From the IMG/VR virus record IMGVR_UViG_3300008111_000024: a stretch of DNA of 64,000 nucleotides; one strand, 5' to 3'. This stretch comes from an uncultured virus (IMG/VR IMGVR_UViG_3300008111_000024). Taxonomy: Duplodnaviria; Heunggongvirae; Uroviricota; Caudoviricetes. This document shows, piece after piece, positions 35 to 16,264 of this stretch (within the stretch, counting starts at the first letter, position 1; each line of letters opens with the position of its first letter). The notes under the pieces were generated by a model, which saw nothing but the letters and a program-made list of their open reading frames with translations, had not been told where the DNA came from and ran no database searches. The position numbers were made by a program, and so were the translations under genes.

Positions 35-120
35 CGGAAGATGTTGGGCTCGAACCAACGCGACTTTTACATCCTACCTGTTTAGCAAACAGGCCCCTTC
101 ACCAACTTGGGTAATCTTCC
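35..120 (-). tRNA. tRNA-Ser(GCU)
   Basis: Cloverleaf GGAAGAT/ATCTTCC, anticodon arm CCTGT-TTGCTAA-ACAGG, long variable arm, TTCGA T-loop. Confidence 0.95.
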
Positions 121-125
121 AATAG

Positions 126-197
126 TAGTCCCTGAGGGATTCGAACCCCCTCTAAAACATCCGTAGTGTTTCGTGCTCTCCGTTACACCAAGGGACT
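126..197 (-). tRNA. tRNA-Arg(ACG)
   Basis: Anticodon arm AAACA-CTACGGA-TGTTT, T-loop TTCGAAT. Confidence 0.93.
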
Positions 198-222
198 ATA
201 CTTCCGTTAATCGTGGGGTCTT

Positions 223-310
223 TGGCGGAGGAAGTAGGATTCGAACCTACGGTACCTTTCGGTACGCTAGTTTTCAAGACTAGTGCAATCGACCACTCTG
301 CCATTCCTCC
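223..310 (-). tRNA. tRNA-Ser(UGA), CCA encoded
   Basis: Anticodon arm CTAGT-CTTGAAA-ACTAG, long variable arm. Confidence 0.95.
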
Positions 311-314
311 TTTT

Positions 315-390
315 TGGGTGAATAACGGGAATCGAACCCGTGACACCTTGGACCACAACCAAGTACTCTTCCAACTGAGCTATATCCACC
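315..390 (-). tRNA. tRNA-His(GUG)
   Basis: Anticodon arm CTTGG-TTGTGGT-CCAAG, G-1 and C73. Confidence 0.95.
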
Positions 391-394
391 ATAT

Positions 395-604
395 TAGCGT
401 TCAATCATTTCTGACGGTCCCCAATACCGAATTTCAGCGGCAACTCACCAATTTCGTGAGGGGTTAGAACTTGTGTGTTAACTTACTCCTGTTACTGGTA
501 CACTAACCAACCGACTTAGATTCAAGTAATCGGCTCAGGTCCCTATGGTTGTAACACCACTTCTCATCATTCGGGAGCAAACTAGTCGTATACTACTCGA
601 CTCG
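395..604 (-). ncRNA. Unassigned structured RNA (~200 nt) within tRNA operon 1
   Basis: GC-richer than coding DNA; hairpins AGTCG/CGACT, CCGATT/AGTCGG, GGTTAG/CTAACC, CTCAC/GTGAG; no credible ORF. Confidence 0.55.
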
Positions 605-606
605 TG

Positions 607-740
607 TAGTCAAGGTCGGACTCGAACCGAATACCGTTCAAGACGGATTAGACAACCTTACGACTCCATAGAACCCACAAGTGTCTGGGACTATTGGTCT
701 TGGGGACTCGGGTACCATCCCTCATTACGCCCACTCGACT
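607..740 (-). ncRNA. tRNA-like RNA (134 nt) with expanded central domain
   Basis: Acceptor-like stem AGTCGAG/CTTGACT, T-arm TCGG-TTCGAGT-CCGA, variable-arm hairpin CCGT/ACGG, no canonical anticodon loop. Confidence 0.6.
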
Positions 741-814
741 ATTACCCCACTTCACCAGGTTAACGGACTGGCTGCCATATGGGAGTGGGGGTTTCCTGTT
801 ATTTCAGGACTCCG

Positions 815-887
815 TGGAACGGGGCGGAATCGAACCGCCGACACCTTGCTCTTCAGGCAAGTGCTCTACCAACTGAGCTACCGTTCC
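815..887 (-). tRNA. tRNA-Phe(GAA)
   Basis: Anticodon arm CTTGC-CTGAAGA-GCAAG. Confidence 0.95.
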
Positions 888-892
888 AATTA

Positions 893-1115
893 TGATAATG
901 TTGGAGTACCCATCTCGCTCCAATCTTAACTGCTTAATCGTAGTTTTACGAGGCCTCGGCAGAGGGTGCTGAATTCCGATTCCACTCTGGATTGTCGACA
1001 TCCGTTGAATGGGGAAAACCATTATCAGTATTTTAAAATCACTTTCGCCCCCTGTATAGACATACGTCGGATGCTTAAGGTCAGCCTTAACTGTTAAGGG
1101 AGCCACCCGTGATTT
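893..1115 (-). ncRNA. Two adjacent structured RNA modules
   Basis: Closing stems TGATAATG/CATTATCA (about 893-1027) and AAATCAC/GTGATTT (about 1036-1115) with internal hairpins such as TTGGAG/CTCCAA. Confidence 0.55.
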
Positions 1116-1126
1116 GTTTTTTTTTT

Positions 1127-1207
1127 TCAAAGAACTCTCTCGTCAGGGGGAGTAGGCCACCAACCTACCAACTACCTACTCCCCCGTCATTTGTGTATAC
1201 AAAGATA
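1127..1207 (-). promoter_or_regulatory. Internal host-type promoter (TATCTTTG), GC hairpin and boxA-like site
   Basis: TATCTTTG at 1207-1200; hairpin GGGGGAGTAGG/CCTACTCCCCC; AGTTCTTTGA at 1136-1127. Confidence 0.65.
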
Positions 1208-1242
1208 CAACTTTTTTTCTAATCCACAATATTTTTTTTTAA

Positions 1243-1302
1243 ACTTCCGAGTTTGGACGTGTTTTACTTCCGAGTTTGGACGTGTTTTACTACCGAGTTT
1301 GG
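1243..1302. repeat. 23-bp tandem repeat, about 2.6 copies
   Basis: ACTTCCGAGTTTGGACGTGTTTT x2 followed by ACTACCGAGTTTGG. Confidence 0.9.
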
Positions 1303-1310
1303 CATTTTTG

Positions 1311-1385
1311 TAGTCCCTGTAGGATTCGAACCTACGACCCCTTCCGTGTAAAAGAAGTGCTCTAAACCAACTGAGCTAAGGAACT
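1311..1385 (-). tRNA. tRNA-Val(UAC)
   Basis: Anticodon arm CTTCT-TTTACAC-GGAAG. Confidence 0.93.
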
Positions 1386-1391
1386 ATTAAG

Positions 1392-1461
1392 TTGCGTGTT
1401 CGGGGTTCGAACCCGATTAACCTTCCTTATGAGAGAAAGTTCTTTTCCTCTAAGCCACGCA
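1392..1461 (-). tRNA. tRNA-Met(CAU), atypical short D-arm
   Basis: Loop CTCATAA, T-arm TCGGG-TTCGAAC-CCCGA, acceptor TGCGTG/CACGCA; only 70 nt. Confidence 0.75.
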
Positions 1462-1469
1462 ATTTGTTG

Positions 1470-1540
1470 TTGTCCCTGAAGGATTCGAACCTCCACTAGG
1501 TGGACCAAAACCACCTGTCCTGCCATTAGACGAAAGGACA
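1470..1540 (-). tRNA. tRNA-Gln(UUG)
   Basis: Anticodon arm GGTGG-TTTTGGT-CCACC. Confidence 0.95.
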
Positions 1541-1548
1541 ATTTAAAG

Positions 1549-1629
1549 TGGGAGTGGAGGGATTCGAACCCCCAATGTCGTAAGACCACTGATTTACAGT
1601 CAGCTAAGCAACCGTTGCTCAACACTCCC
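1549..1629 (-). tRNA. tRNA-Tyr(GUA)
   Basis: Anticodon arm GCTGA-CTGTAAA-TCAGT, long variable arm. Confidence 0.93.
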
Positions 1630-1632
1630 AAT

Positions 1633-1766
1633 TTAGGAAAACAGAAGATGGTTCAGTGGACATCTGTTTTTACGATTAGCATTACTCGGGTGAATACCTG
1701 CAAACTCCGATTGTACTAGTCGGTATTCACTCTCGAACTATCAGTACAATCATTCCCTAATCAACC
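1633..1766 (-). ncRNA. Unassigned structured RNA (~130 nt), possible pseudoknot
   Basis: Closing stem TTAGGGAA/TTTCCTAA; crossing helices GATTGTACT/AGTACAATC and GTGAATACC/GGTATTCAC. Confidence 0.6.
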
Positions 1767-1767
1767 T

Positions 1768-2307
1768 TTATATTGTTATTAAATTATCGTGTATTTCACA
1801 ATGACAATTAGAACAAACTAACATACATTTATCAACCTCATTTTTTAATTTATCAAACGATAAACTTTTACCCGATATTGAAAAATCTTTTTCTAACGGA
1901 TTTTTATGATGAAATTGTAACGCTCTATTACATTTATCATAACCACAAATTTCACATTTACCCCCTTTATATTCAATCAGTTTTATTTTAGTTCTTTTCC
2001 TCCATAAAATAACAGATTCGGAAGATGTTACTGTTTTAACTTTTTGTTTTGTCTTAACATATTTTTGTACGGTTTCAAAAGACCTCCCTGTTATTTTAGC
2101 AACTTTTTTAAGTGAACCAAATTCATCATACATTTTTTGAAATTCAACAATTTCGGCCTCAGTTACCTTTTGATTATTATCCCCTAAACCATTTAATGTA
2201 CAATGGTATGATATTGTTGACATTGCACACCCAATAATGTTTTTAATTTCTTTATAAGTTTTACCTTCTTTCCTTAAGATGATTATTTTTTCCGAATATC
2301 TTTCCAT
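1768..2307 (-). CDS. Free-standing HNH homing endonuclease with N-terminal HTH repeats
   Basis: GGKCEICGY...LQFHH...KCMLVCSNCHCEIH; sits between RNA genes; upstream TATTTAT motif. Confidence 0.85.
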   Translation of the reverse strand: MERYSEKIIILRKEGKTYKEIKNIIGCAMSTISYHCTLNGLGDNNQKVTEAEIVEFQKMYDEFGSLKKVAKITGRSFETVQKYVKTKQKVKTVTSSESVILWRKRTKIKLIEYKGGKCEICGYDKCNRALQFHHKNPLEKDFSISGKSLSFDKLKNEVDKCMLVCSNCHCEIHDNLITI

Positions 2308-2356
2308 AATATTAACATTTTATATTAATAAATATTAGAAAGTTCGTAAATGTTCG

Positions 2357-2440
2357 CTGACACGGTAGGATTCGAACCTACGATGTGGTTTCCCAGTCAG
2401 GTTAACAGCCTGATGCTCTCGGCCTCTGAGCGACGTGTCA
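2357..2440 (-). tRNA. tRNA-Asn(GUU) with long variable arm
   Basis: Anticodon arm TCAGG-CTGTTAA-CCTGA; extra hairpin TGG-GAAA-CCA; 84 nt. Confidence 0.9.
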
Positions 2441-2444
2441 ATTT

Positions 2445-2519
2445 TGGCACGGGTGGAGAATTACGATATCCCGACACCTGGTTTTGGAGACCAGTGCTCT
2501 GCCCCTGAGCTACACCCGT
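2445..2519 (-). tRNA. tRNA-Trp(CCA), atypical T-loop, CCA encoded
   Basis: Anticodon arm CTGGT-CTCCAAA-ACCAG; T-loop ATCGTAA. Confidence 0.88.
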
Positions 2520-2525
2520 GTGTGT

Positions 2526-2747
2526 TTATTTCCATTGGGTTTTACGATTGTATTTCCAAGTTTTATACTCTCGTACCTTTTGCCAAGGAATTCTTTTATT
2601 TGGATTCTTATATCCCCTCTTCCAATAAGGATAAAAGTTGTATCCCTCATCCCAATACAATGGATACCATTCATTGAGGGAAATTAAGTGGTAATCCCTA
2701 CCACATTCTGCGTTTTTGAGCTTGGCTCTGTTTCTGTGTTTTGACAT
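2526..2747 (-). CDS. Small basic, Trp/Tyr-rich hypothetical protein
   Basis: 73-aa ORF co-oriented between tRNA-Cys and tRNA-Trp. Confidence 0.65.
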   Translation of the reverse strand: MSKHRNRAKLKNAECGRDYHLISLNEWYPLYWDEGYNFYPYWKRGYKNPNKRIPWQKVREYKTWKYNRKTQWK

Positions 2748-2805
2748 ATTCTATTGAGTTTACTCAACAGAAGTCATTTTCTTTTTTCATAATATTAATT
2801 TTTAG

Positions 2806-2879
2806 AGGTCAGAGTCGGATTCGAACCGACGAATACTTGTTTTGCAGACAAGCCCCTTAAACCACTTGGGTATCTGACC
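2806..2879 (-). tRNA. tRNA-Cys(GCA)
   Basis: Anticodon arm CTTGT-CTGCAAA-ACAAG, U73. Confidence 0.95.
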
Positions 2880-2883
2880 GTAG

Positions 2884-2958
2884 TGTCCCCGACAGGACTC
2901 GAACCTGTGACTCCCTCATTAAAAGTGAGGTGCTCTAAACCAACTGAGCTACGAAGAC
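2884..2958 (-). tRNA. tRNA-Lys(UUU)
   Basis: Anticodon arm CCTCA-CTTTTAA-TGAGG. Confidence 0.95.
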
Positions 2959-2964
2959 ATTAAG

Positions 2965-3038
2965 TTGTCACAGATGGGCTCGAACCATCGACCTTTCGCG
3001 TATCAGGCGAACGCTCTAACCAACTGAGCTATGTGACA
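2965..3038 (-). tRNA. tRNA-Ile(GAU)
   Basis: Anticodon arm TTCGC-CTGATAC-GCGAA. Confidence 0.95.
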
Positions 3039-3044
3039 ATGTAG

Positions 3045-3116
3045 TCGGGGTAGCAGGGGTCGAACCTGCCGCCTCTTGGTCCCAAACCAAGCGTCTCTCC
3101 CCAAGACTATACCCCG
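3045..3116 (-). tRNA. tRNA-Pro(UGG)
   Basis: Anticodon arm CTTGG-TTTGGGA-CCAAG, C1-G72. Confidence 0.92.
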
Positions 3117-3136
3117 ATTATATACTTACCAATATG

Positions 3137-3146
3137 TCAAAGAACA
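3137..3146 (-). promoter_or_regulatory. boxA-like antitermination site
   Basis: TGTTCTTTGA(CATATTGG), recurring ahead of the other tRNA units. Confidence 0.6.
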
Positions 3147-3148
3147 CT

Positions 3149-3190
3149 AAAAACAAAAAACCCCCGAACTTATGATGGTTCGAGGGTTTT
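3149..3190 (-). terminator. Attenuator terminator of tRNA operon 1
   Basis: AAAACCCTCGAAC-catcataa-GTTCGGGGGTTTT followed by U-tract; 5' arm TCGAACCA is complementary to TGGTTCGA in the leader ORF. Confidence 0.85.
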
Positions 3191-3216
3191 GATGTTTGTT
3201 ATTTATTAACTTAATC

Positions 3217-3333
3217 TTATCCTAAATCTGTGTTATTAACAACAGTCGAACCAATAGATGACATACGCGGATACCAGCAATTACTAAATTGCGATTTCAC
3301 GTTAATGACCATATGTTGTTTATTAGTTCTCAT
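3217..3333 (-). CDS. Leader peptide 1 (38 aa, MRTNKQHMVINVKSQFSNCWYPRMSSIGSTVVNNTDLG)
   Basis: Between promoter and terminator; codons match operon 1 anticodons; not in ORF track. Confidence 0.85.
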   Translation of the reverse strand: MRTNKQHMVINVKSQFSNCWYPRMSSIGSTVVNNTDLG

Positions 3334-3369
3334 TGTTGTATTTTTTAATTGTTTTTCTTATAACTATTA

Positions 3370-3400
3370 CAAAGGTACAAAAAGTTTCGTAATTGTCAAA
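3370..3400 (-). promoter_or_regulatory. Bacteroidota-type primary sigma promoter for leader 1 / operon 1
   Basis: TTTG-N19-TACCTTTG. Confidence 0.85.
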
Positions 3401-3420
3401 CAATTTTAATTATTTTTTTA

Positions 3421-5019
3421 TTAAGCCCCTCCTGTATTTGATTTATCTATGTTTTTAGCAGTGCTCATTGCGTAAGATTTTGCCTGTCCTTTAACAAGTT
3501 TACCAACTTCTTTTTTACTGGTTGGTACTTTGATATCTACACCTGTCTTTTCTTTTATTTTGTCCGCTAATGCTTCTTCACCTTTATTTTTGGCAATATT
3601 TAACATCTCTTGTACAGTCTTATTACTACTTTGTTTCTTAATAAAGTTGTCAGTAACTTGTTTAAATTCGTTTTTATGTTGATTGATTGTCTGTATAATC
3701 TTAATCTCTTCAGGATTAAACGGTATTTTATTAATAGTTTTTTCAGCGATTTTTTCAAATGTTGCCGCTCCAACATTTTTAAGTGCGGGTATTTCAGATG
3801 CAAATGGTACGATACTAAATGCAAGAGTAAGTCCTGCTTCAGCTTTCTTCCCTTGAGAGAAGTAGATTGCGGAATCCGCAACACCAAGACCCGCGGCAAG
3901 TAAAGGGCCAACAAACGGTATAAACATACTCGCTATCTGTAAGTTTTCAATTACTTTATGTCCTTCTTCGGCAGTTAAACCTCCACCAACACAGGTTGGT
4001 TTTGCCCTATCATAAACACCTTTAATTTGAGACGCATTAACTGAATTGTAGAAAGCTGCCATAAAATTATAAACACCTTCAGGAAAATATACAGTAGCGT
4101 TACTTTCTGTACTATTTAAAACATCTTTAAGTAAGTCGTTCCATTTAAAATAAAAGTCCGACAGTATAAAATTAGCATATAACGGAGTTATTTTATTTTT
4201 ATTTTGTGTCCATATAGGTGATTGAGGATTATTAATCATATCCTTTATTGACGTATCATATGATGACAATTTTTTACTTGTCATTTTAACATTACCTAAA
4301 GAACTTAATCCAATTTGTAAACATTCGGTATTATTCCAACCTAATCTATTTGTTTGGATGTCGGTTAAATATTTCATACTATAAAGTGCCGCTAAATTAT
4401 AATGTTGGTTAGGGCTACTTGGTTTCCAAAAAGTATATCCACCAAAACTATCAACAATAAGTCCTTGCGATTTTAAAAATTGGTAGTTTTTTTGGTATTC
4501 AGTACTTGTTTCATAACAAGCCTTACCTCCTTTAGAATTTACAAACTGTCCGTTTTTAGAACAATACTCATCTCTTTCTTTCTTTTGTTTTTGTTCTTCC
4601 CATTTAGAAGCGTTCTCCCAATAATATTGGTCTCCAAAAGATTTACCACATAAATTTTTAGATAAGTAACCTGATAAAACCTTTGTCTTATCATAGTACC
4701 AAGACTTAGATACCGAGTTCCAAAATTTACCAGCATTGTTACCTGTACAATAGTAAACTGTGGAAGGAACTATTTTATTACCATTTTTTCTATCAACTGA
4801 TGCAGTAAAAGATGCTCCACCTGTTGATTTATCTTTTTTATCTCCGTATTGATGAGCGGTAAATCGAGTACCTTTAGGTATTTTAAGTTCACCACCAAGC
4901 ATAGTATTTTTAGTTAAAATTCTATCTTTAACTAACGTATATGTTTGATTGGCAGGTTTAGGTTTAGTTGCCTGTTCAATAATACTTTTAAACTGATTTT
5001 CGGTAATGATTACTCTCAC
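3421..5019 (-). CDS. Large hypothetical protein, putative virion cargo with hydrophobic helical hairpin
   Basis: 532 aa; N-terminal MRVIITENQFKSIIEQ; hydrophobic segment FIPFVGPLLAAGLGVAD; TATTTAT-N4-GTG start. Confidence 0.8.
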   Translation of the reverse strand: MRVIITENQFKSIIEQATKPKPANQTYTLVKDRILTKNTMLGGELKIPKGTRFTAHQYGDKKDKSTGGASFTASVDRKNGNKIVPSTVYYCTGNNAGKFWNSVSKSWYYDKTKVLSGYLSKNLCGKSFGDQYYWENASKWEEQKQKKERDEYCSKNGQFVNSKGGKACYETSTEYQKNYQFLKSQGLIVDSFGGYTFWKPSSPNQHYNLAALYSMKYLTDIQTNRLGWNNTECLQIGLSSLGNVKMTSKKLSSYDTSIKDMINNPQSPIWTQNKNKITPLYANFILSDFYFKWNDLLKDVLNSTESNATVYFPEGVYNFMAAFYNSVNASQIKGVYDRAKPTCVGGGLTAEEGHKVIENLQIASMFIPFVGPLLAAGLGVADSAIYFSQGKKAEAGLTLAFSIVPFASEIPALKNVGAATFEKIAEKTINKIPFNPEEIKIIQTINQHKNEFKQVTDNFIKKQSSNKTVQEMLNIAKNKGEEALADKIKEKTGVDIKVPTSKKEVGKLVKGQAKSYAMSTAKNIDKSNTGGA

Positions 5020-5042
5020 ACTTATAAATACCTTGAGAGTAT

Positions 5043-5568
5043 AAAAAAAGAAAGGTTCTAAATCATCCCCACGCCATTTTGGGAGAACCTTTCAAGTTTA
5101 AGTAGTTTGGCGGTCTATTATCCCACACCGATATGCCCAAGATTTGTTGGACCATAGTAACCATCCACGGTGGGTCTCTTGTACTTTGGTCCGTCTGTCA
5201 TCATACCCATCCACCTTACGGCTTCTACACAGGTACTCTTTTCACCATTTCCTCAGGACATCTTCACCCTACCCCCAAAGTTACGTGGTGAGTCTCACTC
5301 GGAAGCTGAGTGTGTATTGTAGAATTGTCCAGTATTTCTACAACTTGTAGATTGTATTACGACTAATTAAAGCCCCTCACCCCCTCAATCTATAATGGGG
5401 AATCCTTGTAACCTGTGTAGCCTCCCCCATAGCCTTGAAGCCTTCAAGTCAGGTTCACACACCATAACGGTCGGATACTTCCGTTATTCGTGGGGTCTTA
5501 AGTAGAGTATGACGTATGCTCGTCCTGTAGTTGTTTCCATCCGCGGACTCACGGTTCTCTCTACTTTG
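5043..5568 (-). ncRNA. Large (~520 nt) structured non-coding RNA with its own promoter and terminator
   Basis: TTTG-N20-TATATTTG at 5605-5574; raised GC; helices AAGTAGAG/CTCTACTT, ATAACGG/CCGTTAT, TTGTAGAA/TTCTACAA; ends GAAAGGTTCT/AGAACCTTTC plus U-tract. Confidence 0.7.
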
Positions 5569-5608
5569 TCTTACAAATATATGAATTTTGTTTTAAGTCG
5601 TCAAACAA

Positions 5609-6100
5609 TTAGTTTAAAAAAGATAAAACTTTTTCTTTAATACCTGATTGTTTTAATCCTTCATTACCTTTCGGTGTAAGTACAAAATTATCTAATCCCC
5701 AATCGTGAGTAAANNNNNNNNNNNNNNNNNNNNNNNNNAAATCCCATTGTCTAGACCAAGGAAAATCCTCACCATAATTGTTACACTCACTTAAGTTTGG
5801 AGTAAACGCAATTGGTTTTTTGACAATCCCTTGAGATTCATAGTATTGTCCCATCTCCTCAACGGTTGCCCATCTTTTCCAATCTGAAGATACAACAATT
5901 TCAGCACCCGTTAATTCCAATATTTCATTAAGAACTTTAATAGCTTTCTTATTGAAATTGTCAAAACGATACTCCATAGGTATTTGCGTTGGGGTTGTAG
6001 ACAACCTTAGTTCTCCCCATTTTTTTTGTTTCTTGTAACGACCACCCCACTCTGTGGATAGACAGATTACTCCATCGTGGTCTAAAAATATAACTTTCAT
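5609..6100 (-). CDS. HAD-family phosphatase (Swiss-Army-knife RNA-repair HAD type), interrupted by an assembly gap
   Basis: VIFLDHDGV, IVVSSDWK; N-run at 5714-5738. Confidence 0.8.
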   Translation of the reverse strand: MKVIFLDHDGVICLSTEWGGRYKKQKKWGELRLSTTPTQIPMEYRFDNFNKKAIKVLNEILELTGAEIVVSSDWKRWATVEEMGQYYESQGIVKKPIAFTPNLSECNNYGEDFPWSRQWDXXXXXXXXXFTHDWGLDNFVLTPKGNEGLKQSGIKEKVLSFLN

Positions 6101-6101
6101 A

Positions 6102-6734
6102 TTATGTGTTCCTTGTTAAACGTTCATAGTTTGATTTGTTCTCGAATTGGCGTTCAATTCTATATAAGTGATTTGGGTTTAATCCAAACCACGGGTCTGA
6201 GTGGTGAAACTTATTAAATTGTTCAGGTAACATATCTGAGTCATCGTCTAAGATGGCGTAGTCCTCAACCTCAGGATGTTTATCCAACCACTCTTGGATT
6301 TCCTGACCCCTTAAAGTTCTTCGTTCACCAGTGATTCCAACAAAGGTACCTTCATTAAAACCAAGCTCAACTAAAGCATCTTCCCATCTCTCAGGTGTGG
6401 AGACATAACCTTCAGTACCAAAATGATGTTTCCATACTGAAGAAACACAAATCTTAGTACCTGTCTTATTACACCACTCACTAAGCCACTTCCATTTCTG
6501 TTGACAAGTCTCTTCTTGTAATCTCTCAAATTGGTAATTAAATGTATAAAAGTTTTTAGGTGGTTTATAATCTGTTAATGAAACCCCTTTAGACTCAATT
6601 CTAAATAATTTTCTAACCAATCGTTTTATTTCATACCACCAAGTAATAGGTTTCCTCCAACGTCTTTTATGTCTTTCTTGATAAAAGACTCTAGAGTTCA
6701 TAACACCATCAATATCTAAAAATAAGACTTTCAC
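6102..6734 (-). CDS. HAD-family phosphatase (Swiss-Army-knife RNA-repair HAD type)
   Basis: VLFLDIDGV, ICVSSVWK, RGQEIQEWL, YAILDDDSD. Confidence 0.85.
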   Translation of the reverse strand: MKVLFLDIDGVMNSRVFYQERHKRRWRKPITWWYEIKRLVRKLFRIESKGVSLTDYKPPKNFYTFNYQFERLQEETCQQKWKWLSEWCNKTGTKICVSSVWKHHFGTEGYVSTPERWEDALVELGFNEGTFVGITGERRTLRGQEIQEWLDKHPEVEDYAILDDDSDMLPEQFNKFHHSDPWFGLNPNHLYRIERQFENKSNYERLTRNT

Positions 6735-6736
6735 AG

Positions 6737-9623: not shown

Positions 9624-9631
9624 AAAGTTTG

Positions 9632-9704: not shown

Positions 9705-9709
9705 TTTTG

Positions 9710-9781: not shown

Positions 9782-9790
9782 TTATTATTG

Positions 9791-9862: not shown

Positions 9863-9946
9863 ATTTAGATGAGTCGTGGACTTGTGTACCACTTTTGTCC
9901 CCCTTTAGCTAGCCACTAACCTGAAGGTGTGGGGACCCCCATTTTA

Positions 9947-10210
9947 TTACGAATATTTTTTCGCGATATTTGCAATTGTTTCTTCCTCTTCCTTACTCAT
10001 TCTATGGTAAGAATTTGCTAAAACATCACAATAATCTCTATGAGTTTCCTCAATTAACGAATATTGTGGTGGTTTACCTATTCCTTTACTATTTTTTGTT
10101 AAGTAACCTCTATCGATTAAATCATCAATTAAATCATTAATCTCACTTTTGGAACATTCATCAATAAATTCAAAAACGTCCACATCAACATAAGTGCTAA
10201 ATTCTGGCAT
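9947..10210 (-). CDS. Hypothetical protein
   Basis: 87-aa ORF with A-rich leader, inside operon 2. Confidence 0.75.
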   Translation of the reverse strand: MPEFSTYVDVDVFEFIDECSKSEINDLIDDLIDRGYLTKNSKGIGKPPQYSLIEETHRDYCDVLANSYHRMSKEEEETIANIAKKYS

Positions 10211-10232
10211 AATAATTTTTTTTTAAGTTTTG

Positions 10233-10304
10233 TAGTCCGTGCGGGAATCGAACCCGCCTTTTATCCGTGAAAGGGATATGTCCTAACCGATAGACGAACG
10301 GACC
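10233..10304 (-). tRNA. tRNA-Glu(UUC)
   Basis: Anticodon arm TATCC-CTTTCAC-GGATA. Confidence 0.95.
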
Positions 10305-10321
10305 ATTTTTAAATCTTTTTA

Positions 10322-10352
10322 CAAAGATACAACCAATATTTCAAAGAACAAA
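10322..10352 (-). promoter_or_regulatory. Host-type promoter overlapping a boxA-like site
   Basis: TTTG-N19-TATCTTTG; TGTTCTTTGA(AATATTGG) at 10350-10341. Confidence 0.65.
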
Positions 10353-10366
10353 ATTTTTAATACTAT

Positions 10367-10401
10367 AAAAACAAAAAACCCATCTCTTTTGGAGATGGGT
10401 T
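10367..10401 (-). terminator. Attenuator terminator of tRNA operon 2
   Basis: AACCCATCTC-caaaa-GAGATGGGTT plus U-tract; CCATCTCCA is complementary to TGGAGATGG at the end of the leader ORF. Confidence 0.88.
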
Positions 10402-10425
10402 CAGTGAATTCATAGTATAGGAATA

Positions 10426-10500
10426 TCACACCATCTCCATTGGAGTAGTCGCTTCAGTTCTATCTGTCCCGCCTATTAGTATGATATGTGTAGTTTTCAT
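10426..10500 (-). CDS. Leader peptide 2 (24 aa, MKTTHIILIGGTDRTEATTPMEMV)
   Basis: Codons ATA CTA ATA GGC GGG ACA GAT AGA ACT GAA match operon 2 anticodons; not in ORF track. Confidence 0.85.
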   Translation of the reverse strand: MKTTHIILIGGTDRTEATTPMEMV

Positions 10501-10561
10501 TTGCAGTTTTATTTGTTTTTAATTAAATATATGGGTATAACGTAAAAAGTCAAATTTTATT

Positions 10562-12379
10562 TTAAAAATTAAATCCAAGTTTACCTTTTAATGGTTTTAT
10601 TTTAGGTTCTGTGACAGTTTTAGTTGGTTTTTCGATTGGTTTTGTTTCAGAACGTCGATTAATTATTGCATCTTTATTAACATTTGGGTCTACTTGTCGA
10701 ACAACTTTAGTATTGGACCTTACCAAAGATAATACAGTTTCTCTAACGTTATTGTTTGAAATATTAGTTTCTTCTAATTTAAATTCAGTCACAGGTTCTG
10801 GTTTAACCGTTTTCTCTTCAACAGGTTTAACATACTTTTTAACCTCAGGTATTCTTGATTCAACAACTCTAACCGCAGTAGTGTTATCTAATTTTTTAAT
10901 AACCTCATCAACTTGAGTATTTGGTTTATTATCAACTTTTGGTATTTCTTTAATGGTTGTTAATTGATTTGCGACTGTGACATCGGTAAAGTCTAAATTA
11001 TTATATATTAAAACAAATTCGGAAGTTATTAATTCATCTAAAGGACCAAAATTAGTTTTTTGTCTTGATAATTCTACGTAATGTTTTCTTAAAGAAGAAC
11101 CGTAATTAGTTTTAACATCGCTAGTCAAACCTTTACTGTGAATTCTTCTATAAAAAAGAATTTCTTTACCCAAAGAAGTTCTAACTCCGTTTTTTTGAAT
11201 TCTCGCCATAAAGTCAGAATCCGCCGCACATCTCCATCCCTCAAAACCATTAAACCTTAAAAATGCTTCTTTCTTAATTCCAAAAACACCTTCACCCCAT
11301 AGTCTTGAACTTTCTTTATATTTCGGGTCGGACTCATTAATTTCACCATAAAAATTATGAAACATTGGTTTAACACATTCGTAGTTAGTTAAATCTTTAA
11401 TAATTTCTTTAACCATATCTTTTTTCATAATATCATCGGAATCAAAAAATATGATGTTTTCTGATTTCACCCTTTTAGATAATGTGTTTTTTATAATGTA
11501 TGGACCAACATTTTCGTTGAAATAAAAAAACTGAACTGAGGGGTTAAATTTATTAGTTTTTACAAACTCTAAGGTTTCTTCACAATTATCAATTCCGACT
11601 AATATTTCAAAATTATTTATTTCTTTACAAGAATTAACTATTGAATCTAAACATTCCTTAAGGTATTCAACTGTGTTAAACGTTGGTACTATTATTGATA
11701 CAGTTTTATTTGTAAAACTATTATTAGTAATTACGGTTTGTTTTAAATCTGATTTGAATTCGTTTTCATATATTGATTCATTTATTTTTTGTTGGGTAAC
11801 AAATCCTGAATTATGTTTTACGCAGATAATATCAATATTATTTTCATTAGAATACTTTCCAATCCAAACGTCCGCCATATTAGGTTCTCTAAAATAATCC
11901 ATACCTATTTTAAACAAATCCGTATGAAATGCCATTACTCCTGTCCCTCCAAATTGAACCTTAATGTCGTTAGGGTTGATTGAGTTAAAATGATTAACAA
12001 TTGAATGTCTCCCATAAAAATTTTTTATAGGGAACGACTCAAAACTTCTAGAGTGTAAGGTCACAATAGACTTTCTTTTATATTCTTCAATTTTACCAAT
12101 CATATAGTCAGTATAATTTTCAGGATATATTAAATCGTCATCTATAGTAAAGAAATAACCTTCAGAATCCATTAACTTATAAAATTTATAAGCATCTCCT
12201 TTGTCATTATCCGTGATGAATAGATTTATTTTTTTATCATATAATTCTACGGGAATTTCATCATAATCATTAAGTGCTAAATTAATAACATCACATTGAT
12301 TATAAATTGACTTGATTGTATTAATTAGGGTATCCTCCCTTTTATAGCTGGTGATGTTATATATTACACGATTCTTCAT
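10562..12379 (-). CDS. Two-domain glycosyltransferase (GT-A plus GT2) with low-complexity tail
   Basis: FTIDDDLIYP; VSIIVPTFN...IIFFDSDD. Confidence 0.88.
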   Translation of the reverse strand: MKNRVIYNITSYKREDTLINTIKSIYNQCDVINLALNDYDEIPVELYDKKINLFITDNDKGDAYKFYKLMDSEGYFFTIDDDLIYPENYTDYMIGKIEEYKRKSIVTLHSRSFESFPIKNFYGRHSIVNHFNSINPNDIKVQFGGTGVMAFHTDLFKIGMDYFREPNMADVWIGKYSNENNIDIICVKHNSGFVTQQKINESIYENEFKSDLKQTVITNNSFTNKTVSIIVPTFNTVEYLKECLDSIVNSCKEINNFEILVGIDNCEETLEFVKTNKFNPSVQFFYFNENVGPYIIKNTLSKRVKSENIIFFDSDDIMKKDMVKEIIKDLTNYECVKPMFHNFYGEINESDPKYKESSRLWGEGVFGIKKEAFLRFNGFEGWRCAADSDFMARIQKNGVRTSLGKEILFYRRIHSKGLTSDVKTNYGSSLRKHYVELSRQKTNFGPLDELITSEFVLIYNNLDFTDVTVANQLTTIKEIPKVDNKPNTQVDEVIKKLDNTTAVRVVESRIPEVKKYVKPVEEKTVKPEPVTEFKLEETNISNNNVRETVLSLVRSNTKVVRQVDPNVNKDAIINRRSETKPIEKPTKTVTEPKIKPLKGKLGFNF

Positions 12380-13083
12380 TATTTCGCAATTAATTTTTCA
12401 TTTCTTCTAAGTTCAGGTAATATTACAGACTCGTGGTCACCGTGAGTTGTTAACGTATTAATAACGTGATACATATTAAACCCATTCTCAAATAATCTAA
12501 GACTAATTTGTTGACCGACTCCACTACTAATATTTGGGTTTTTATCCCATCTTGACGCTGGTATTGGATTAAGTTTAAAATCTAAAACTTCAAAAAATTT
12601 ATATTCACACATAAAAACTAACTCACACCATTGTGTTTTATAATATTCATCATACTCTATTGGGTAAACTCCTGTCCATTTAGGGGTGTTTCTTTGGGAA
12701 TCAATCATTAATGTTCCTAAACTGATTTTATTATCGTCAGGTATACTTTCAAAAATCCTAACACTTTCTTGAAAGAAATTTTCTTTTAATCTCAAATCGT
12801 CTTGGAAATAAAAGTAATATTTTGCATCTATTTTTTGACTAAACTTAAATGTATCGCTTATCACTCTCCAAAGATTTTTTAACCCATTATTTTTTACATA
12901 TTTAATATATTTTACATCATACTCACTTAAATCGTAAGTATGTTTACTCCCATCGTCGAATACGACCACAAACATATTATATTCGGTGTATTTAAAAATA
13001 TCGTCCAATAATTGTTTTAGCATATCCTCTCTTTCATATGTTGTTATAACAATACAAAAATCATATTTTTCACCACTCTTCAT
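12379..13083 (-). CDS. GT2-like glycosyltransferase
   Basis: IVITTYER, VVVFDDGS, FQDD. Confidence 0.85.
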   Translation of the reverse strand: MKSGEKYDFCIVITTYEREDMLKQLLDDIFKYTEYNMFVVVFDDGSKHTYDLSEYDVKYIKYVKNNGLKNLWRVISDTFKFSQKIDAKYYFYFQDDLRLKENFFQESVRIFESIPDDNKISLGTLMIDSQRNTPKWTGVYPIEYDEYYKTQWCELVFMCEYKFFEVLDFKLNPIPASRWDKNPNISSGVGQQISLRLFENGFNMYHVINTLTTHGDHESVILPELRRNEKLIAK

Positions 13084-13568
13084 TAAAATAATATTGTAAA
13101 TATTTTGTCTTCACAACCCACTGATAAGGTTATTTTTTTATCTAGTTTTTCTGATAAGAATATTGACATATTTCTATCATTTTCTCTATTAGTGTCATCA
13201 ATAATTATAGGTATGTTTTGTTTAAACATTTCATAGTGATTAATAATATTAATTCTATTTTCTCCAACAGGTCCGTCAACAAGTAATAAATCATAATGTT
13301 TTGGTAATTTATTTTTTAATATTTCTACATCATACCAACCATCAATTAAAGGTGCATAGATATAGTTTGACTCAGGTACTAAACCAAGCCATTTTTCGTC
13401 GTGTTCAATACTATAAACATTATAATATTTTACTAATTCTTTGGTACCGTTACCGCTACCTAATTCAAGGATTGTACTACCTTTTGGTAAGTTTTCTAAA
13501 ATCCACTCAAAAAGTTCTTTTGAAATTGCCCATCCACCGAATGATTCGTAGTTCACATCACTATTCAT
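13083..13568 (-). CDS. Class I SAM-dependent methyltransferase-like protein
   Basis: ILELGSGNGT, SIEHD, LLLVDGP, IIIDD. Confidence 0.85.
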   Translation of the reverse strand: MNSDVNYESFGGWAISKELFEWILENLPKGSTILELGSGNGTKELVKYYNVYSIEHDEKWLGLVPESNYIYAPLIDGWYDVEILKNKLPKHYDLLLVDGPVGENRINIINHYEMFKQNIPIIIDDTNRENDRNMSIFLSEKLDKKITLSVGCEDKIFTILF

Positions 13569-13621
13569 TTAATTTTAATTCTTAGTATAATTATAATTAT
13601 AATTATTTGTAAATCTATAAT

Positions 13622-14452
13622 ATGAAAAAAACAGTAGGAGTAATAGGTAATGGGTTTGTTGGTGAAAGTATTTCATTTGCATTCAGTCCAACCTCAGATG
13701 TTAAAGTATACGATATTAACCCATTAAAAAGTTTAAATACTTTAGATGAGGTTATGAATCAAGAATTTATTTTTGTTTGTTTACCAACACCAATGAATAT
13801 TGATGGTACTCAAGATATCTCGTATATTGAGAATTTTTTTGGTAATATCATTTATGATGAAAAAAGAATTTTCATTATAAAATCAACAGTACTTCCAGGT
13901 ACTACAGAATCTTTAATTGAGAAGTACGGTCATAACATTGTATTCTCACCTGAATTTTTAACTGAAAGGACTGCAAAGCTTGATATGTTAACACAAGCTA
14001 GAATTATAATTGGTGGTGATGAAAACTTAACCAAAAAAGTTGAGGGTCTGTTTAATGACAGGTTTATGAATAGACATATAATTCATACTGATTCCAAAAC
14101 TGCTGAATTTGTAAAATATATGAATAATACTTTTTTTGCTGCAAAAGTTAGTTTAATGAACGAATATTATAGACTTTCTAAATTAATTGGTGTAGATTGG
14201 GAAAAAGCGTTATACGGGTTTGCTTCTGATGGCAGAATTGGTGATTCTCATTTACACGTTCCAGGTCCTGACGGCAAGTTAGGTTTTGGAGGTACTTGTT
14301 TTCCAAAAGATATTAATGCGTTAATAACTATGGCATCTGAAGTAGGTTGTAATATGAACATTTTAGAAGCCGCTTGGAAAACTAATTTAGAAGTTAGACC
14401 TGAACAAGATTGGAAAGAATTAAAAGGTAGGGCAGTTTCTGAAAAACAATAA
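13622..14452 (+). CDS. UDP-glucose/GDP-mannose dehydrogenase family (short phage form)
   Basis: GVIGNGFVG, KSTVLPGT, FSPEFL, GFGGTCFPKD. Confidence 0.92.
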   Translation: MKKTVGVIGNGFVGESISFAFSPTSDVKVYDINPLKSLNTLDEVMNQEFIFVCLPTPMNIDGTQDISYIENFFGNIIYDEKRIFIIKSTVLPGTTESLIEKYGHNIVFSPEFLTERTAKLDMLTQARIIIGGDENLTKKVEGLFNDRFMNRHIIHTDSKTAEFVKYMNNTFFAAKVSLMNEYYRLSKLIGVDWEKALYGFASDGRIGDSHLHVPGPDGKLGFGGTCFPKDINALITMASEVGCNMNILEAAWKTNLEVRPEQDWKELKGRAVSEKQ

Positions 14453-14476
14453 TATTTATAAATAAAGAAAATCGTG

Positions 14477-14584
14477 ATGAATATGAAATCATTAAATATG
14501 GGTCTTTTAGTACAGGATAATATTACGTCGGCACTGTTATGTGTTCGAGGAGTGACCTTACGCGATTTAGATAAACAAAACTAA
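14477..14584 (+). CDS. Leader peptide 3 (35 aa, Leu-rich, MNMKSLNMGLLVQDNITSALLCVRGVTLRDLDKQN)
   Basis: After TATTTAT motif at 14453; 7 Leu codons; contains antiterminator GTGACCTT; not in ORF track. Confidence 0.75.
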   Translation: MNMKSLNMGLLVQDNITSALLCVRGVTLRDLDKQN

Positions 14585-14613
14585 AATTGAACAAAAAACT
14601 AAAACGTATAAAG

Positions 14614-14647
14614 AAAGGTCACAAGAAATTGTGACCTTTTTTGTTTT
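14614..14647 (+). terminator. Attenuator terminator upstream of the HNH / tRNA-Leu / clpP unit
   Basis: AAAGGTCACAA-gaaa-TTGTGACCTTT plus U-tract; AAGGTCAC is complementary to 14552-14559. Confidence 0.85.
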
Positions 14648-14678
14648 AATGAAAAAAAATTATTAAATTTGCCAAGAT

Positions 14679-15182
14679 ATGGAAAGAGTATTAGTGTTAA
14701 ATGCAGATTATACCCCGTTAAACGTGACATCCTCACAAAAAGGATTTAAACTAGTTTTCAAGGGTAAAGCGGAAATCGTTAAGAGTTCCGAAAGTCCTAT
14801 TATTGCAGGATACCAAAACTTTGTACGTCCATTAATTATACGTTTGTTTAAATACGTAAAATTTAGGGTTAGGAATATTCGGGTTAACAGACATAGAATA
14901 TATCGGAGAGATGGTGGAGAGTGTGTTTATTGTGGTTCAACTAAACAGTTAACCTTAGACCACGTTATTCCTAAATCTAAAGGAGGTTCAAACGAATGGA
15001 CTAACCTTGTAACTTGTTGTCATAAATGTAACCTACATAAAGCTGATAGAACACCTCAAGAGGCAGGTATGACTCTACGTAAAAAACCGTATGAACCATC
15101 ATTGTTTATTGACGTGGTAAATAATTCTTTGGAAAGGGTATGGGAAGATTACAAAAATTCATTCGGGGTGTTGACAGTTTAA
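14679..15182 (+). CDS. HNH endonuclease (McrA-like family)
   Basis: VLVLNADYTPL; RDGGECVYCG...TLDHVIPKSKGG...NLVTCCHKCN. Confidence 0.9.
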   Translation: MERVLVLNADYTPLNVTSSQKGFKLVFKGKAEIVKSSESPIIAGYQNFVRPLIIRLFKYVKFRVRNIRVNRHRIYRRDGGECVYCGSTKQLTLDHVIPKSKGGSNEWTNLVTCCHKCNLHKADRTPQEAGMTLRKKPYEPSLFIDVVNNSLERVWEDYKNSFGVLTV

Positions 15183-15259
15183 AAAATACGCCGTACATTT
15201 GTACTGTTCTTTGATATACGAAACGCTCGGGTGGTGGAATAGGTAGACACGTCAGACTT

Positions 15260-15923
15260 AATTCTAAATGTCTGTATATTTATTAGTATGAGAATACAAA
15301 TAAGTGAAACAGAATTTAAAGAAGTGGTTTTTAGTTCTATGACTATGGCACAAGCTTCAGCTAAACTTGGATTACACTTCAATACTTTTAAACGTATTGC
15401 GGTTAAACTAGGTGTTTATAATCCGAATCAATCGGGTAAAGGTGTAAAAAAGGATATGTCATCCGTTTCAATACCTTTAGACGAAATATTAGAAGGTAAA
15501 CATCCAAGTTACCAGACTTTTAAACTTAAGAATAGAATGTTAAGAGAAAATATTCTCAATAATGTTTGTTCTGAATGTAAAATAAATGAGTGGAATGGTA
15601 AACCAATTAGTCTTGAACTTGACCATATAGATGGTGTACGTACTAATCATAAGTTGAATAACTTAAGATTATTATGTCCAAACTGTCATTCTCAGACAGA
15701 CACCTATAGAAGTAAAAACAGGATTTGAGTGCTTGAGAAGAAATTCTCAATGTAGAACTCCGTAAATTCGGTGAACCCTTTCAAATGGGAATACCGAGCC
15801 AAGCCTCGAAAGAGGAAGGTGTAGAGACTAGACACGGAGAACCTAAGTCTGAAAAGATAAGGTTAAGGTATAGTCCAGACCACAAACAACAATTTGGTTG
15901 GTAGTGAAAACTATAGTGGTAAG
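15260..15923 (+). mobile_element. Group I intron (664 nt) with homing endonuclease ORF
   Basis: U before the 5' splice site, terminal G; core elements AAATTCGGTGAA, AATACCGAGC, GTAGAGACTA, AAGGTATAGTCC; P3 CTCCGT/ACGGAG. Confidence 0.92.
15288..15728 (+). CDS. Intron-encoded HNH endonuclease
   Basis: CSECK...LELDHIDG..N..NNLRLLCPNCHSQT; TATTTAT-N4-ATG. Confidence 0.9.
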   Translation: MRIQISETEFKEVVFSSMTMAQASAKLGLHFNTFKRIAVKLGVYNPNQSGKGVKKDMSSVSIPLDEILEGKHPSYQTFKLKNRMLRENILNNVCSECKINEWNGKPISLELDHIDGVRTNHKLNNLRLLCPNCHSQTDTYRSKNRI

Positions 15924-15978
15924 AAAATCTGATGGACCGTAAGGTCCGTGCGGGTTCGATTCCCGCCCCGAGTACTAA

Positions 15979-16180
15979 GAGTAAGAGATACTCTGAAAGT
16001 TTGGTAACGTTCTTTCAAGATGTTATAGTTGTCGCCTTCCACGACTTTAGAGAGGGGGTCGTCGGAGCCTGGATGTAACAAATCCACCGAGTATGTTTGA
16101 CGTTTTAAGCGGTAAGACGCGTTGGGTTTTTCAATAGGAAAAACTGTGAATATCTACTCACCGTAATCTCAGGTGGGGCC
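15979..16180 (+). ncRNA. Unassigned structured RNA (~200 nt) between the two tRNA-Leu genes
   Basis: Hairpins GAGTA/TACTC, ACGAC/GTCGT, TGGAT/ATCCA, CGTTTTA/TAAGACG, GTTTTTC/GAAAAAC. Confidence 0.6.
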
Positions 16181-16184
16181 AAAT

Positions 16185-16264
16185 ATCAGAGTGGTGGAAT
16201 TGGTAGACACGTATGCCTTAGGAGCATATGCTACGGCGTGAGGGTTCGAGTCCCTCCTCTGATA
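16185..16264 (+). tRNA. tRNA-Leu(UAG)
   Basis: Anticodon arm TATGC-CTTAGGA-GCATA. Confidence 0.95.

Follow-up and report, generated by a model that had tools for sequence, protein, structure and literature searches.

It has been debated for fifty years whether phages carry transfer RNA (tRNA) genes for codon compensation or for the replacement of tRNAs destroyed by defence systems. A stretch of 64,000 nucleotides (nt) of DNA from an uncultured freshwater Caudoviricetes virus (IMG/VR record IMGVR_UViG_3300008111_000024), referred to below as the window, raises the question of when such genes are transcribed: in it, two large tRNA arrays lie behind a short open reading frame (ORF) and an intrinsic terminator. 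Each large array is probably controlled by a ribosome-mediated transcription attenuator, in which the short ORF would act as a leader listing the codons of the array, and slow reading of these codons by ribosomes would then probably be the condition for the phage to make the corresponding tRNAs. An initial annotation of the window had proposed such multi-codon leader-peptide attenuation gating the matching tRNA set, and the coverage, permutation, frame, synonymous-codon and position tests described here support the proposal at the level of sequence. Directly observed are the elements and their conservation, the match between leader and array in frame and among synonymous codons, the position of the matching codons, and the co-variation of antiterminator and terminator.

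RESULTS

Leader ORFs and intrinsic terminators precede the two large tRNA arrays

ARAGORN called 24 tRNA genes in the window: 13 at 3116-34 (minus strand), nine at 10304-7938 (minus strand), tRNA-Leu(UAG) at 16185-16265 (plus strand) and a lone tRNA-Phe at 47649-47723. An additional tRNA at 2448-2519 was detected by Rfam only (47 bits), with an anticodon that we read as CCA (Trp), and a weak, sub-threshold Rfam tRNA (25.7 bits) was seen at 1392-1461, with an anticodon read as CAU. Since ARAGORN called Trp and Met tRNAs at the corresponding array positions of a relative (L056), we included Trp and a Met-like tRNA in the composition of array 1. From the ARAGORN and Rfam results together, array 1 (34-3116, minus strand) comprises Pro, Ile(GAU), Lys, Cys, Trp, Asn, Tyr and Gln, followed by Met-like(CAU), Val, Phe, His, Ser(UGA), Arg(ACG) and Ser(GCU). 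Array 2, called by ARAGORN (7938-10304, minus strand), comprises Glu, Gly(GCC), Gly(UCC), Asp twice, Arg(UCU), Thr, Met and Ile(UAU).

The elements ahead of array 1 all lie on the minus strand. A match to the Bacteroidota-type promoter pattern, P1 (3370-3400; TTTG-N19-TACCTTTG), precedes leader ORF 1 (3217-3333), which has 38 codons, codons 2-24 forming what we call the sensor zone. Towards its end the leader contains a strand (3240-3254) predicted to pair with the 5' arm of intrinsic terminator 1 (3157-3190; 13 pairs and a T run). The terminator is followed by the motif GTTCTTTGA (3137-3145), which lies within a conserved boxA-like 18-mer, GTTCTTTGACATATTGGT (3128-3145), located 12 nt ahead of tRNA-Pro. 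The promoter pattern had 13 matches in the window, where 2.67 were expected.

The same succession was found ahead of array 2, also on the minus strand. A promoter-like site read by eye (10524-10554; TTTG-N19-TATATTTA), supported by a relaxed-pattern match 23 nt before the ATG and a sigma-70-like match at 10526-10553, precedes leader ORF 2 (10426-10500; 24 codons). The putative antiterminator strand of this leader (10427-10440) contains GGAGATGG and could pair with CCATCTCC of the 5' arm of intrinsic terminator 2 (10376-10402; 11 pairs and a T run). Next come the motif at 10341-10349, within the 18-mer at 10332-10349, and tRNA-Glu; the 18-mer is enclosed by a further promoter-like site, P2 (10322-10352; TTTG-N19-TATCTTTG). 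The initial annotation had described one layout for all three tRNA operons of the window. The order promoter, leader, terminator, motif and tRNAs holds for arrays 1 and 2 and does not extend to operon 3, which is described separately below.

The leaders carry cognate codons for the tRNAs of their own arrays

Cognate codons were called under strict wobble rules. Leader 1 contained a cognate codon for 14 of the 14 tRNA species of array 1 (a count that includes the Trp(CCA) at 2448-2519), all of them within the first 23 codons, and leader 2 contained one for 8 of the 8 array-2 species within its first 16. In leader 2, codons 7-16 (ATA CTA ATA GGC GGG ACA GAT AGA ACT GAA) name Ile(UAU), both Gly tRNAs, Thr, Asp, Arg(UCU) and Glu. 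The cognate codons of leader 1 were concentrated in the sensor zone, where they accounted for 17 of 22 codons as against 5 of 15 in the tail.

Coverage expected by chance was estimated from random ORFs (n = 300,000) generated with the codon frequencies found in 46 long ORFs of the window. Complete coverage of array 1 was reached by 28 of 300,000 random ORFs of 38 codons and by none of 300,000 when the length was limited to the 23 codons up to the last diagnostic one. Array 2 was fully covered by 2,953 of 300,000 random ORFs of 24 codons (about 1%) and by 218 of 300,000 ORFs of 16 codons. Among natural segments of the same length taken from the phage ORFs, coverage equal to that of leader 1 was found in 0 of 12,558 and equal to that of leader 2 in 30 of 13,202.

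The codons were not exclusively those of the leader's own array. Leader 1 had cognate codons for 6 of the 8 species of array 2, mostly by way of its tail, and it also carries AGA and ACT at codons 2-3; leader 2 had codons for 5 of the 14 species of array 1. The codon content had been described as partitioned like the tRNAs, and the partition is real and leaky. The spacing between codons and antiterminator came out as initially described, that is about four codons, the distance from the last diagnostic codon being 4-5 codons in leaders 1 and 2.

Codon coverage follows the array in related phages

With the neighbouring proteins as queries we retrieved seven IMG/VR loci. In L001 and L002, which show 85% protein identity, both leaders were kept, and in leader 1 several codons had changed with every diagnostic codon retained. 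L006 and L007 (48% identity in the glycosyltransferase) have another array, consisting of Thr, Gln, Pro, Trp, Cys, Leu, His, Ile, Met and more, and a leader that is also different and that names the first nine tRNAs of this array.

The 18-mer motif was then used as a leader-blind probe in IMG/VR and matched at least 115 stretches. Among the matches listed, 64 of 118 motif occurrences had a tRNA within 200 nt downstream, mostly 23-45 nt away. A unit was defined as a hairpin with a T run, together with the longest ATG-initiated ORF ending 5-60 nt before it and a tRNA on the same strand within 250 nt after it. This definition gave 56 units in the window and the retrieved loci, again among the matches listed, the relatives having been retrieved without regard to leaders. 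The terminator and the first tRNA were 5-142 nt apart across the 56 units, and the leader ORFs began with ATG in an A-rich context. Fifteen units, mostly from short loci, were dropped for having fewer than three tRNAs, which left 41. De-duplication at 60% leader identity removed another 15, so that 26 units remained. The two units of the window were among the duplicates removed and are represented in the set of 26 by L001 and L002. Likely false leaders were retained in all counts. The coverage counts disregard tRNA-Met(CAU) and any tRNA for which no three-base anticodon was called.

Across the 26 units the leaders covered 0.904 of the species of their own arrays, compared with 0.665 (standard deviation 0.037) when leaders were permuted among arrays, and none of 20,000 permuted pairings was as good. 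The fraction of leader codons that were cognate was 0.519 versus 0.357 after permutation, with the same result of 0 in 20,000. Treated as separate groups, the large "type A" arrays (13 units; 0.936 versus 0.824) and the remaining arrays (13 units; 0.873 versus 0.592) gave 0 in 20,000 each, and the coverage result held at 45% (21 units) and 35% (19 units) de-duplication. The coverage depended on the reading frame: the in-frame value of 0.904 fell to 0.568 and 0.564 when the other frames were read and to 0.560 for the reverse complement. A cognate codon was present in the leader for 229 of 252 species that occur in the array and for 216 of 476 species that are absent from it. Segments of leader length taken from long ORFs of the same locus seldom reached the coverage of the leader (median 0.9%; below 1% in 13 of 25 units and below 5% in 16 of 25). 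In these relatives leader codon sets co-vary with downstream anticodon sets, a comparison that the initial annotation had put forward, and both the leaders and the antiterminator pairing are conserved.

Two phages with two units each allowed the match to be compared within one genome. In G003 the leaders covered 14 of 14 and 6 of 6 species of their own arrays and 2 of 6 and 5 of 14 of each other's; in L023 the figures were 12 of 12 and 3 of 3 for the own arrays and 0 of 3 and 2 of 12 for the swapped ones. The second leader of L023, with 8 Leu and 4 Arg codons, lies ahead of a Leu-Arg(UCU)-Leu array. In L026, a leader rich in Ser, Leu, His and Tyr lies ahead of an array of Tyr-Ser-Tyr-His-His-Ser-Leu-Leu-Leu. 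The promoter pattern was found within 120 nt upstream of 16 of the 26 leaders, where 0.74 would be expected, and it was missing between the terminator and the first tRNA in 19 of the 26 units.

Synonymous codons agree with the anticodons of the array

The leaders were also compared with their arrays at the level of synonymous codons, with expectations derived from pooled codon usage. In the families split between tRNAs (Leu, Ser, Arg, Gly and Ile) the codon cognate to the array was used in 125 of 180 cases versus 102.2 expected (z = 3.9), the preference being evident for Arg (24 of 28, expected 13.5) and Ser (29 of 44, expected 20.1). In the four-fold boxes read by a U34 tRNA (Pro, Val, Thr and Ala), codons of the type NNA or NNG were used in 52 of 68 cases versus 31.1 expected (z = 5.1). 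A function of the leader at the peptide level does not predict a synonymous bias. The match is to codons and not just to amino acids.

The leaders contain a strand that co-varies with the terminator arm

The putative antiterminator strands start at codon 27 in leader 1, at codon 21 in leader 2 and at codons 25-26 in leader 3. In leader 2, GGAGATGG gives 8 nt of perfect complementarity to the terminator arm, with a predicted duplex energy of -16.8 kcal/mol (z = -4.56 versus shuffled leaders). In leader 3, GTGACCTT also gives 8 nt (-13.1 kcal/mol, z = -3.9), and in leader 1 only 7 nt are perfect (GGTTCGA; RNAduplex -13.1 kcal/mol, z = -3.15). An 8-9 nt copy of the terminator sequence had been reported for each leader, which is correct for leaders 2 and 3 and too long for leader 1. 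Of the 26 units, 16 had a duplex z below -2, with a mean z of -2.4 versus shuffles.

Strand and arm change together across lineages, as seen in the pairs GGAGATGG/CCATCTCC, GGAGAGGG/CCCTCTCC and GGAGAAGG/CCTTCTCC. A compensatory change from A:T to G:C distinguishes the window (GGTTCGA/TCGAACC) from its close relatives L001/L002 (GGTTCGG/CCGAACC in L001), and a quite different pair, TCCCGAGGT with ACCTCGGGA, occurs elsewhere. The cognate codons lie mainly upstream of this strand: they made up 330 of 507 codons in the sensor zones (65%) versus 104 of 245 in the tails (42%; Fisher P = 5e-9).

The full transcripts fold well (z = -4.65 and -3.15). Equilibrium folding with a 30-nt ribosome mask was tried as a model of the switch and was rejected, as it gave no switch, with the terminator always favoured; it was replaced by a second model in which the transcript was cut just before the 3' arm of the terminator, a ribosome mask was applied and the pairing of the 5' arm was scored. 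For leader 2 the predicted probability (P) that the 5' arm is paired upstream was 0.88 with the ribosomal A site on codons 1-17, 0.12-0.62 at later codons and 0.54 at the stop codon. For leader 1 the corresponding values were 0.79 with the A site on codons 1-13 and 19-23, less than 0.46 at later positions and 0.03 at the stop codon. Averaged over the 26 units, P was 0.84 for ribosomes in the sensor zone and 0.50 for those at the stop. The masked-window folding suggested in the initial annotation thus gave mixed support: in cut transcripts the window leaders shift with the position of the ribosome, and in equilibrium folds they never switch. The zone-versus-tail distribution and the cut-transcript folds both place the matching codons where a stalled ribosome would be predicted to leave the antiterminator strand free. 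A protector (1:2) hairpin appeared in the minimum free energy structure of leader 1 only, where codons 2-4 pair with the antiterminator strand.

The tRNA-Leu operon differs in layout

The elements of operon 3 lie on the plus strand. Leader ORF 3 (14477-14584) has 35 codons, 7 of them Leu, and contains the antiterminator strand AGTGACCTTA (14551-14560), followed by intrinsic terminator 3 (14611-14642; 14 pairs). Upstream of this leader no promoter match was found. Between terminator 3 and the Leu tRNAs there is an ORF for an HNH endonuclease of 167 amino acids (aa) (14679-15182), preceded by a promoter-like pattern match (14640-14671). A second promoter, TTGACA...TACATTTG (15171-15199), is followed by GTTCTTTGA at 15206-15214, directly before tRNA-Leu(UAA). 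The two tRNA genes, the Leu(UAA) gene split by a group I intron (15225-15974) and then Leu(UAG) at 16185-16265, occupy 15225-16265. The intron in the anticodon loop was recognised by Rfam (Intron_gpI, 15704-15898, 55.6 bits against a threshold of 50), and the flanking tRNA-Leu(UAA) exons were read by eye from the sequence. The intron carries an HNH ORF of its own (15288-15728, plus strand).

Leader 3 has 6 codons (of 34) that are cognate to the two Leu tRNAs (P = 0.02), a number equalled by 273 of 12,742 natural segments. Its description as Leu-rich is accurate as to the count of 7 in 35 codons, and the enrichment is modest. The arrangement, including the HNH gene, is conserved in two relatives with 92% and 78% DNA identity. 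The leader 3 unit may be an attenuator, with a candidate link to the Leu tRNAs.

In RNA contigs from two runs of one study, position 15923 is joined back to 15318, giving a circle-like form of 606 nt that could be either the circularised intron or an assembly artefact.

The motif behind the terminators is shared with bacterial genomes

In the phages the motif lies past the terminator and ahead of the tRNAs. From this position it cannot help read-through of that terminator, and we do not count it as a part of the switch. We take GTTCTTTGA to resemble the boxA consensus of ribosomal RNA (rrn) operons. The 18-mer (GTTCTTTGANATATTGGT) is also found in bacteria, in at least 122 genome stretches that are mostly from Bacteroidota. 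Among 20 bacterial loci checked with Rfam (from L123-L202), two (L128 and L144; one Cryomorphaceae and one Flavobacteriales genome) had the identical 18-mer about 25 nt before the 23S ribosomal RNA (rRNA), past the spacer tRNAs, and neither rRNA nor tRNA was seen near the motif in the remaining 18. A promoter-like site precedes the motif in some phages, as in rRNA operons. The most likely reading of the motif is an rrn-type boxA or a signal for processing that serves the stable-RNA transcript. It is like the rrn boxA sites bound by NusB/NusE in that the 18-mer is shared with the rRNA spacers of two Flavobacteriales-type genomes, and it differs in that the phage motif stands past a terminator and precedes tRNAs, and just 2 of the 20 bacterial loci are rrn spacers.

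In L008, L017, L018, L036 and similar loci the motif is followed, at a fixed distance of 1072 nt or 180 nt, by tRNA-like genes to which ARAGORN gives two-base anticodons and which Rfam confirms as tRNAs. We considered whether the features at +1072 were 16S rRNA and discarded this, as Rfam shows only tRNAs there.

Other features of the arrays and their surroundings

Array 1 is interrupted by an HNH/HTH ORF (1768-2307, minus strand), and it contains a promoter-like site read by eye at about 1200-1229 (minus strand). Two of its spacers, 390-810 and 890-1200 (minus strand), are long and have no tRNA or Rfam call; the latter starts with the promoter-like site and a GC-rich stem-loop, after which comes GTTCTTTGA at 1127-1135. 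The same head of promoter, stem-loop and boxA-like motif stands ahead of the His array of L003. In array 2, promoter-like pattern matches were found at 9337-9368 and 8777-8808 (minus strand). Internal promoters had been listed at 1200, 10322 and 15194; there are promoter-like matches at each of these places, and with the two further sites in array 2 that list was incomplete.

Between Glu and Gly, array 2 of the relatives has a tRNA-Ala(UGC), an extra Met and an odd tRNA (L002 1356-1688, compared with 9862-10232 of the window). The window array lacks these tRNAs, and leader 2 still has a GCG Ala codon both in L002 and in the window. The second tRNA-Phe(GAA) of the window, located with its surroundings at 47649-47780 (minus strand), stands alone and far from the arrays, with its own promoter match (47749-47780) and no space for a leader.

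Two adjoining ORFs between the tRNA arrays (5609-6100 and 6102-6734, minus strand) matched HAD_SAK_2 with E values of 2e-11 and 1.5e-18. This HAD domain is that of the 'Swiss Army Knife' RNA-repair proteins, and its occurrence near the arrays is a hint that RNA repair accompanies tRNA supply; neither an RNA ligase nor a kinase could be identified next to the two ORFs. On the other side of array 2, two family-2 glycosyltransferase ORFs (10562-13083) adjoin a 276-aa ORF (13622-14452, plus strand) with partial N-terminal and central domains of UDP-glucose/GDP-mannose dehydrogenase, which may be truncated. Relaxed Pfam scans of the array-adjacent ORFs (532 aa, 317 aa and small ORFs) gave sub-threshold matches only, and PHROGs supplied a name for just 3 of 20 large ORFs. 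A megablast search of positions 1-16300 against the phage collection returned only a 51-nt tRNA-Ser match in two records, and tblastn with the 532-aa neighbouring protein returned no match.

RNA contigs from lake metatranscriptomes

Six RNA runs from lake metatranscriptomes contained parts of the stretch, and four of them, consisting of assembled contigs, were compared. Contig pieces identical to the window were found in run X15, for example 205-739, 5148-5713, 8138-8509 and 15318-15923. Among the matches listed, no RNA contig spans a leader or terminator or has its end there, and the contigs speak neither for nor against attenuation.

In all four metatranscriptome runs the contig word depth reached its maximum over the 17 kb in the segment 5035-5605 (minus strand), which starts with a promoter match (5574-5605) and continues for about 520 nt without a long ORF up to a terminator-like end. 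This segment had no Rfam match and folded no better than shuffles (z = -0.4).

DISCUSSION

The arrangement of the units can be read as a switch operated by the ribosome. A Bacteroidota-type promoter would start a transcript headed by the short ORF, whose first two thirds would present one codon, mostly in single copy, for each downstream tRNA species, and whose last third would contain the strand able to pair with the terminator's 5' arm. A ribosome that reaches the stop codon would cover this strand, the terminator would form, and transcription would end before the tRNAs. A stall at any of the checklist codons, caused by a tRNA that is scarce, damaged or uncharged, would leave the strand free to pair with the emerging 5' arm, and RNA polymerase would continue into the array. 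The expected outcome would be any-of-N sensing with negative feedback: as phage tRNAs accumulate, the leader would be read fast and the operon would be turned off. That the leaders are translated and that stalling changes read-through is inferred, as is any cause of tRNA shortage in nature; anticodon nucleases as the trigger would be pure conjecture.

Several observations weigh against this interpretation. Most regulatory codons are present only once, so that the leaders should respond only to severe shortage and have low sensitivity to a mild one. A promoter-like site lies between terminator and first tRNA in 7 of the 26 units, window array 2 included, where P2 would allow transcription independent of the attenuator. 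Together with the sites inside the arrays, such promoters are more frequent than the initial annotation listed, and part of the tRNA expression would bypass the attenuators. In operon 3 the HNH gene and two promoter-like sites separate the terminator from the Leu tRNAs. On the codon side, Leu shows no synonymous preference (26 of 40, with 26.1 expected), and coverage under strict wobble is low for Leu(UAG) (3 of 8 arrays) and Pro(UGG) (8 of 12 arrays). Four or five leaders with poor coverage are likely to be false (L015, L021, the second unit of L069, and L065), and the leaders are homologous to each other, so that the unit counts are not fully independent. The folding results also count here. 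At equilibrium, both in the window and in most of the relatives, the terminator has a P of about 0.96 wherever the ribosome is placed, and any switch must therefore be kinetic and act during transcription. With the crude ribosome-mask model a clean on/off contrast was obtained in just 5 of the 26 units, and antitermination is still predicted when no ribosome is present (mean 0.79; 0.88 for leader 2 and 0.45 for leader 1).

Some of these points would suit ordinary gene ends, in which the hairpins terminate upstream units, the short ORFs are chance or unrelated occurrences and the tRNAs are transcribed from their own promoters: the promoter-like sites past the terminators, the thermodynamic dominance of the terminator in all folds, and the protein gene with its own promoter-like site behind terminator 3. 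We nevertheless consider gene ends very improbable. A promoter is present between the upstream gene and the leader, codon coverage is far above chance and specific to the frame, synonymous codons are biased towards the anticodons of the array, the antiterminator strand co-varies with the terminator arm, and 19 of the 26 units have no promoter pattern between terminator and first tRNA. That the leaders are functional small peptides, such as regulators or toxins, resembling the arrays through the coding needs of the phage, is to our mind hardly credible at all. The conserved N-terminus MK[T/N]..H and tails such as MEMV could be taken as signs of a functional peptide, and some leader peptides reportedly act in trans, as in the studies of peTrpL. 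The conserved tail, however, is the antiterminator strand itself and changes along with the terminator; own-phage ORF segments seldom match the leaders in coverage, two leaders in one phage fit different arrays, and the synonymous preference for array anticodons would be left unexplained.

It is also conceivable, and we regard it as unlikely, that an attenuator is present and senses general translation capacity, such as the availability of ribosomes or the overall rate of elongation, or amino-acid starvation and not specific tRNAs, the leader being a representative test message. Single copies of many codons do resemble an average mRNA, and stalling cannot distinguish an uncharged tRNA from a missing one; the ribosome-free state is predicted to be antiterminated, and any failure of translation would then open the gate. 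Against such a test message stands the fact that it need not differ between arrays, whereas the codon sets are array-specific within one phage and swapped leaders fit the arrays worse. An attenuator matched to the tRNAs of its own array is the reading that we prefer.

The class of mechanism is well known. In the enterobacterial attenuators (ilvGMEDA, ilvBN, thr, trp, his, leu and pheA) a ribosome stalled at regulatory codons favours read-through, and in the ilv and thr leaders several amino acids are sensed by one leader. The phage units have the same parts, namely a promoter, a short leader with regulatory codons, alternative antiterminator and terminator hairpins, and regulated genes. They differ in that tRNAs and not biosynthetic enzymes would be regulated, and in that runs of one to three amino acids are replaced by up to 15 codons, mostly present once and matched at the synonymous-codon or anticodon level. 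A clear 1:2 protector is found only in leader 1, and the setting is that of Bacteroidota-type hosts, with TAnnTTTG promoters and no Shine-Dalgarno sequence. The pheST operon, in which the pheM leader adjusts phenylalanyl-tRNA synthetase to the supply of charged tRNA, is similar in placing a component of the decoding machinery under a leader-peptide attenuator, and differs in that one amino acid is sensed and a protein is made there, while many codons would be sensed and tRNAs made here. T-box riboswitches likewise sense tRNA status through an antiterminator/terminator switch upstream of translation-related genes; they bind tRNA directly by a specifier codon without a ribosome, whereas the phage leader is a frame-specific ORF from ATG to stop, and an Rfam E-value scan of 1-17500 gave no T-box match.

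The proposal also touches on work in which phage tRNAs are described as a counter-defence against tRNA-cleaving immunity (eLife 2023, PMC10264068; Nat Commun 2024, PMC11555353), the likeness being that phage sets replace host tRNAs lost in infection. Control of the tRNA genes is not described there, and PMC10264068 and PMC12482277 make no mention of a leader, of attenuation or of a terminator. In a full-text search of the accessible literature, which takes in few subscription journals, no paper turned up that describes tRNA genes, of phages or of bacteria, under the control of a leader peptide or an attenuator. As far as we have found, the target, tRNA genes, and the sensing of many codons, once each and matched to anticodons, are new. 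If the proposal is true, this would be the first leader-peptide attenuation controlling tRNA genes and the most multiplexed codon sensor known. It would carry leader-peptide attenuation beyond amino-acid metabolism into stable-RNA genes, with as many as 15 different single codons in place of runs of one codon. The leaders are unannotated ORFs of 20-50 codons, and their codon lists would predict the content of the array behind them, which may be of use in annotation; for synthetic biology they may offer a compact natural part that senses decoding capacity.

For the phages themselves, a sensor of slow codons would tell us what the phage treats as the signal for making tRNAs. The debate over why phages carry these genes would become experimental, in that the depletion of one tRNA would be expected to open one attenuator. 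We lean towards the broader view that Bacteroidota phages, and possibly many others, possess a homeostat of decoding capacity, through which the loss of any single tRNA, including loss through host anticodon nucleases or host shut-off, would lead to transcription of the exact replacement set.

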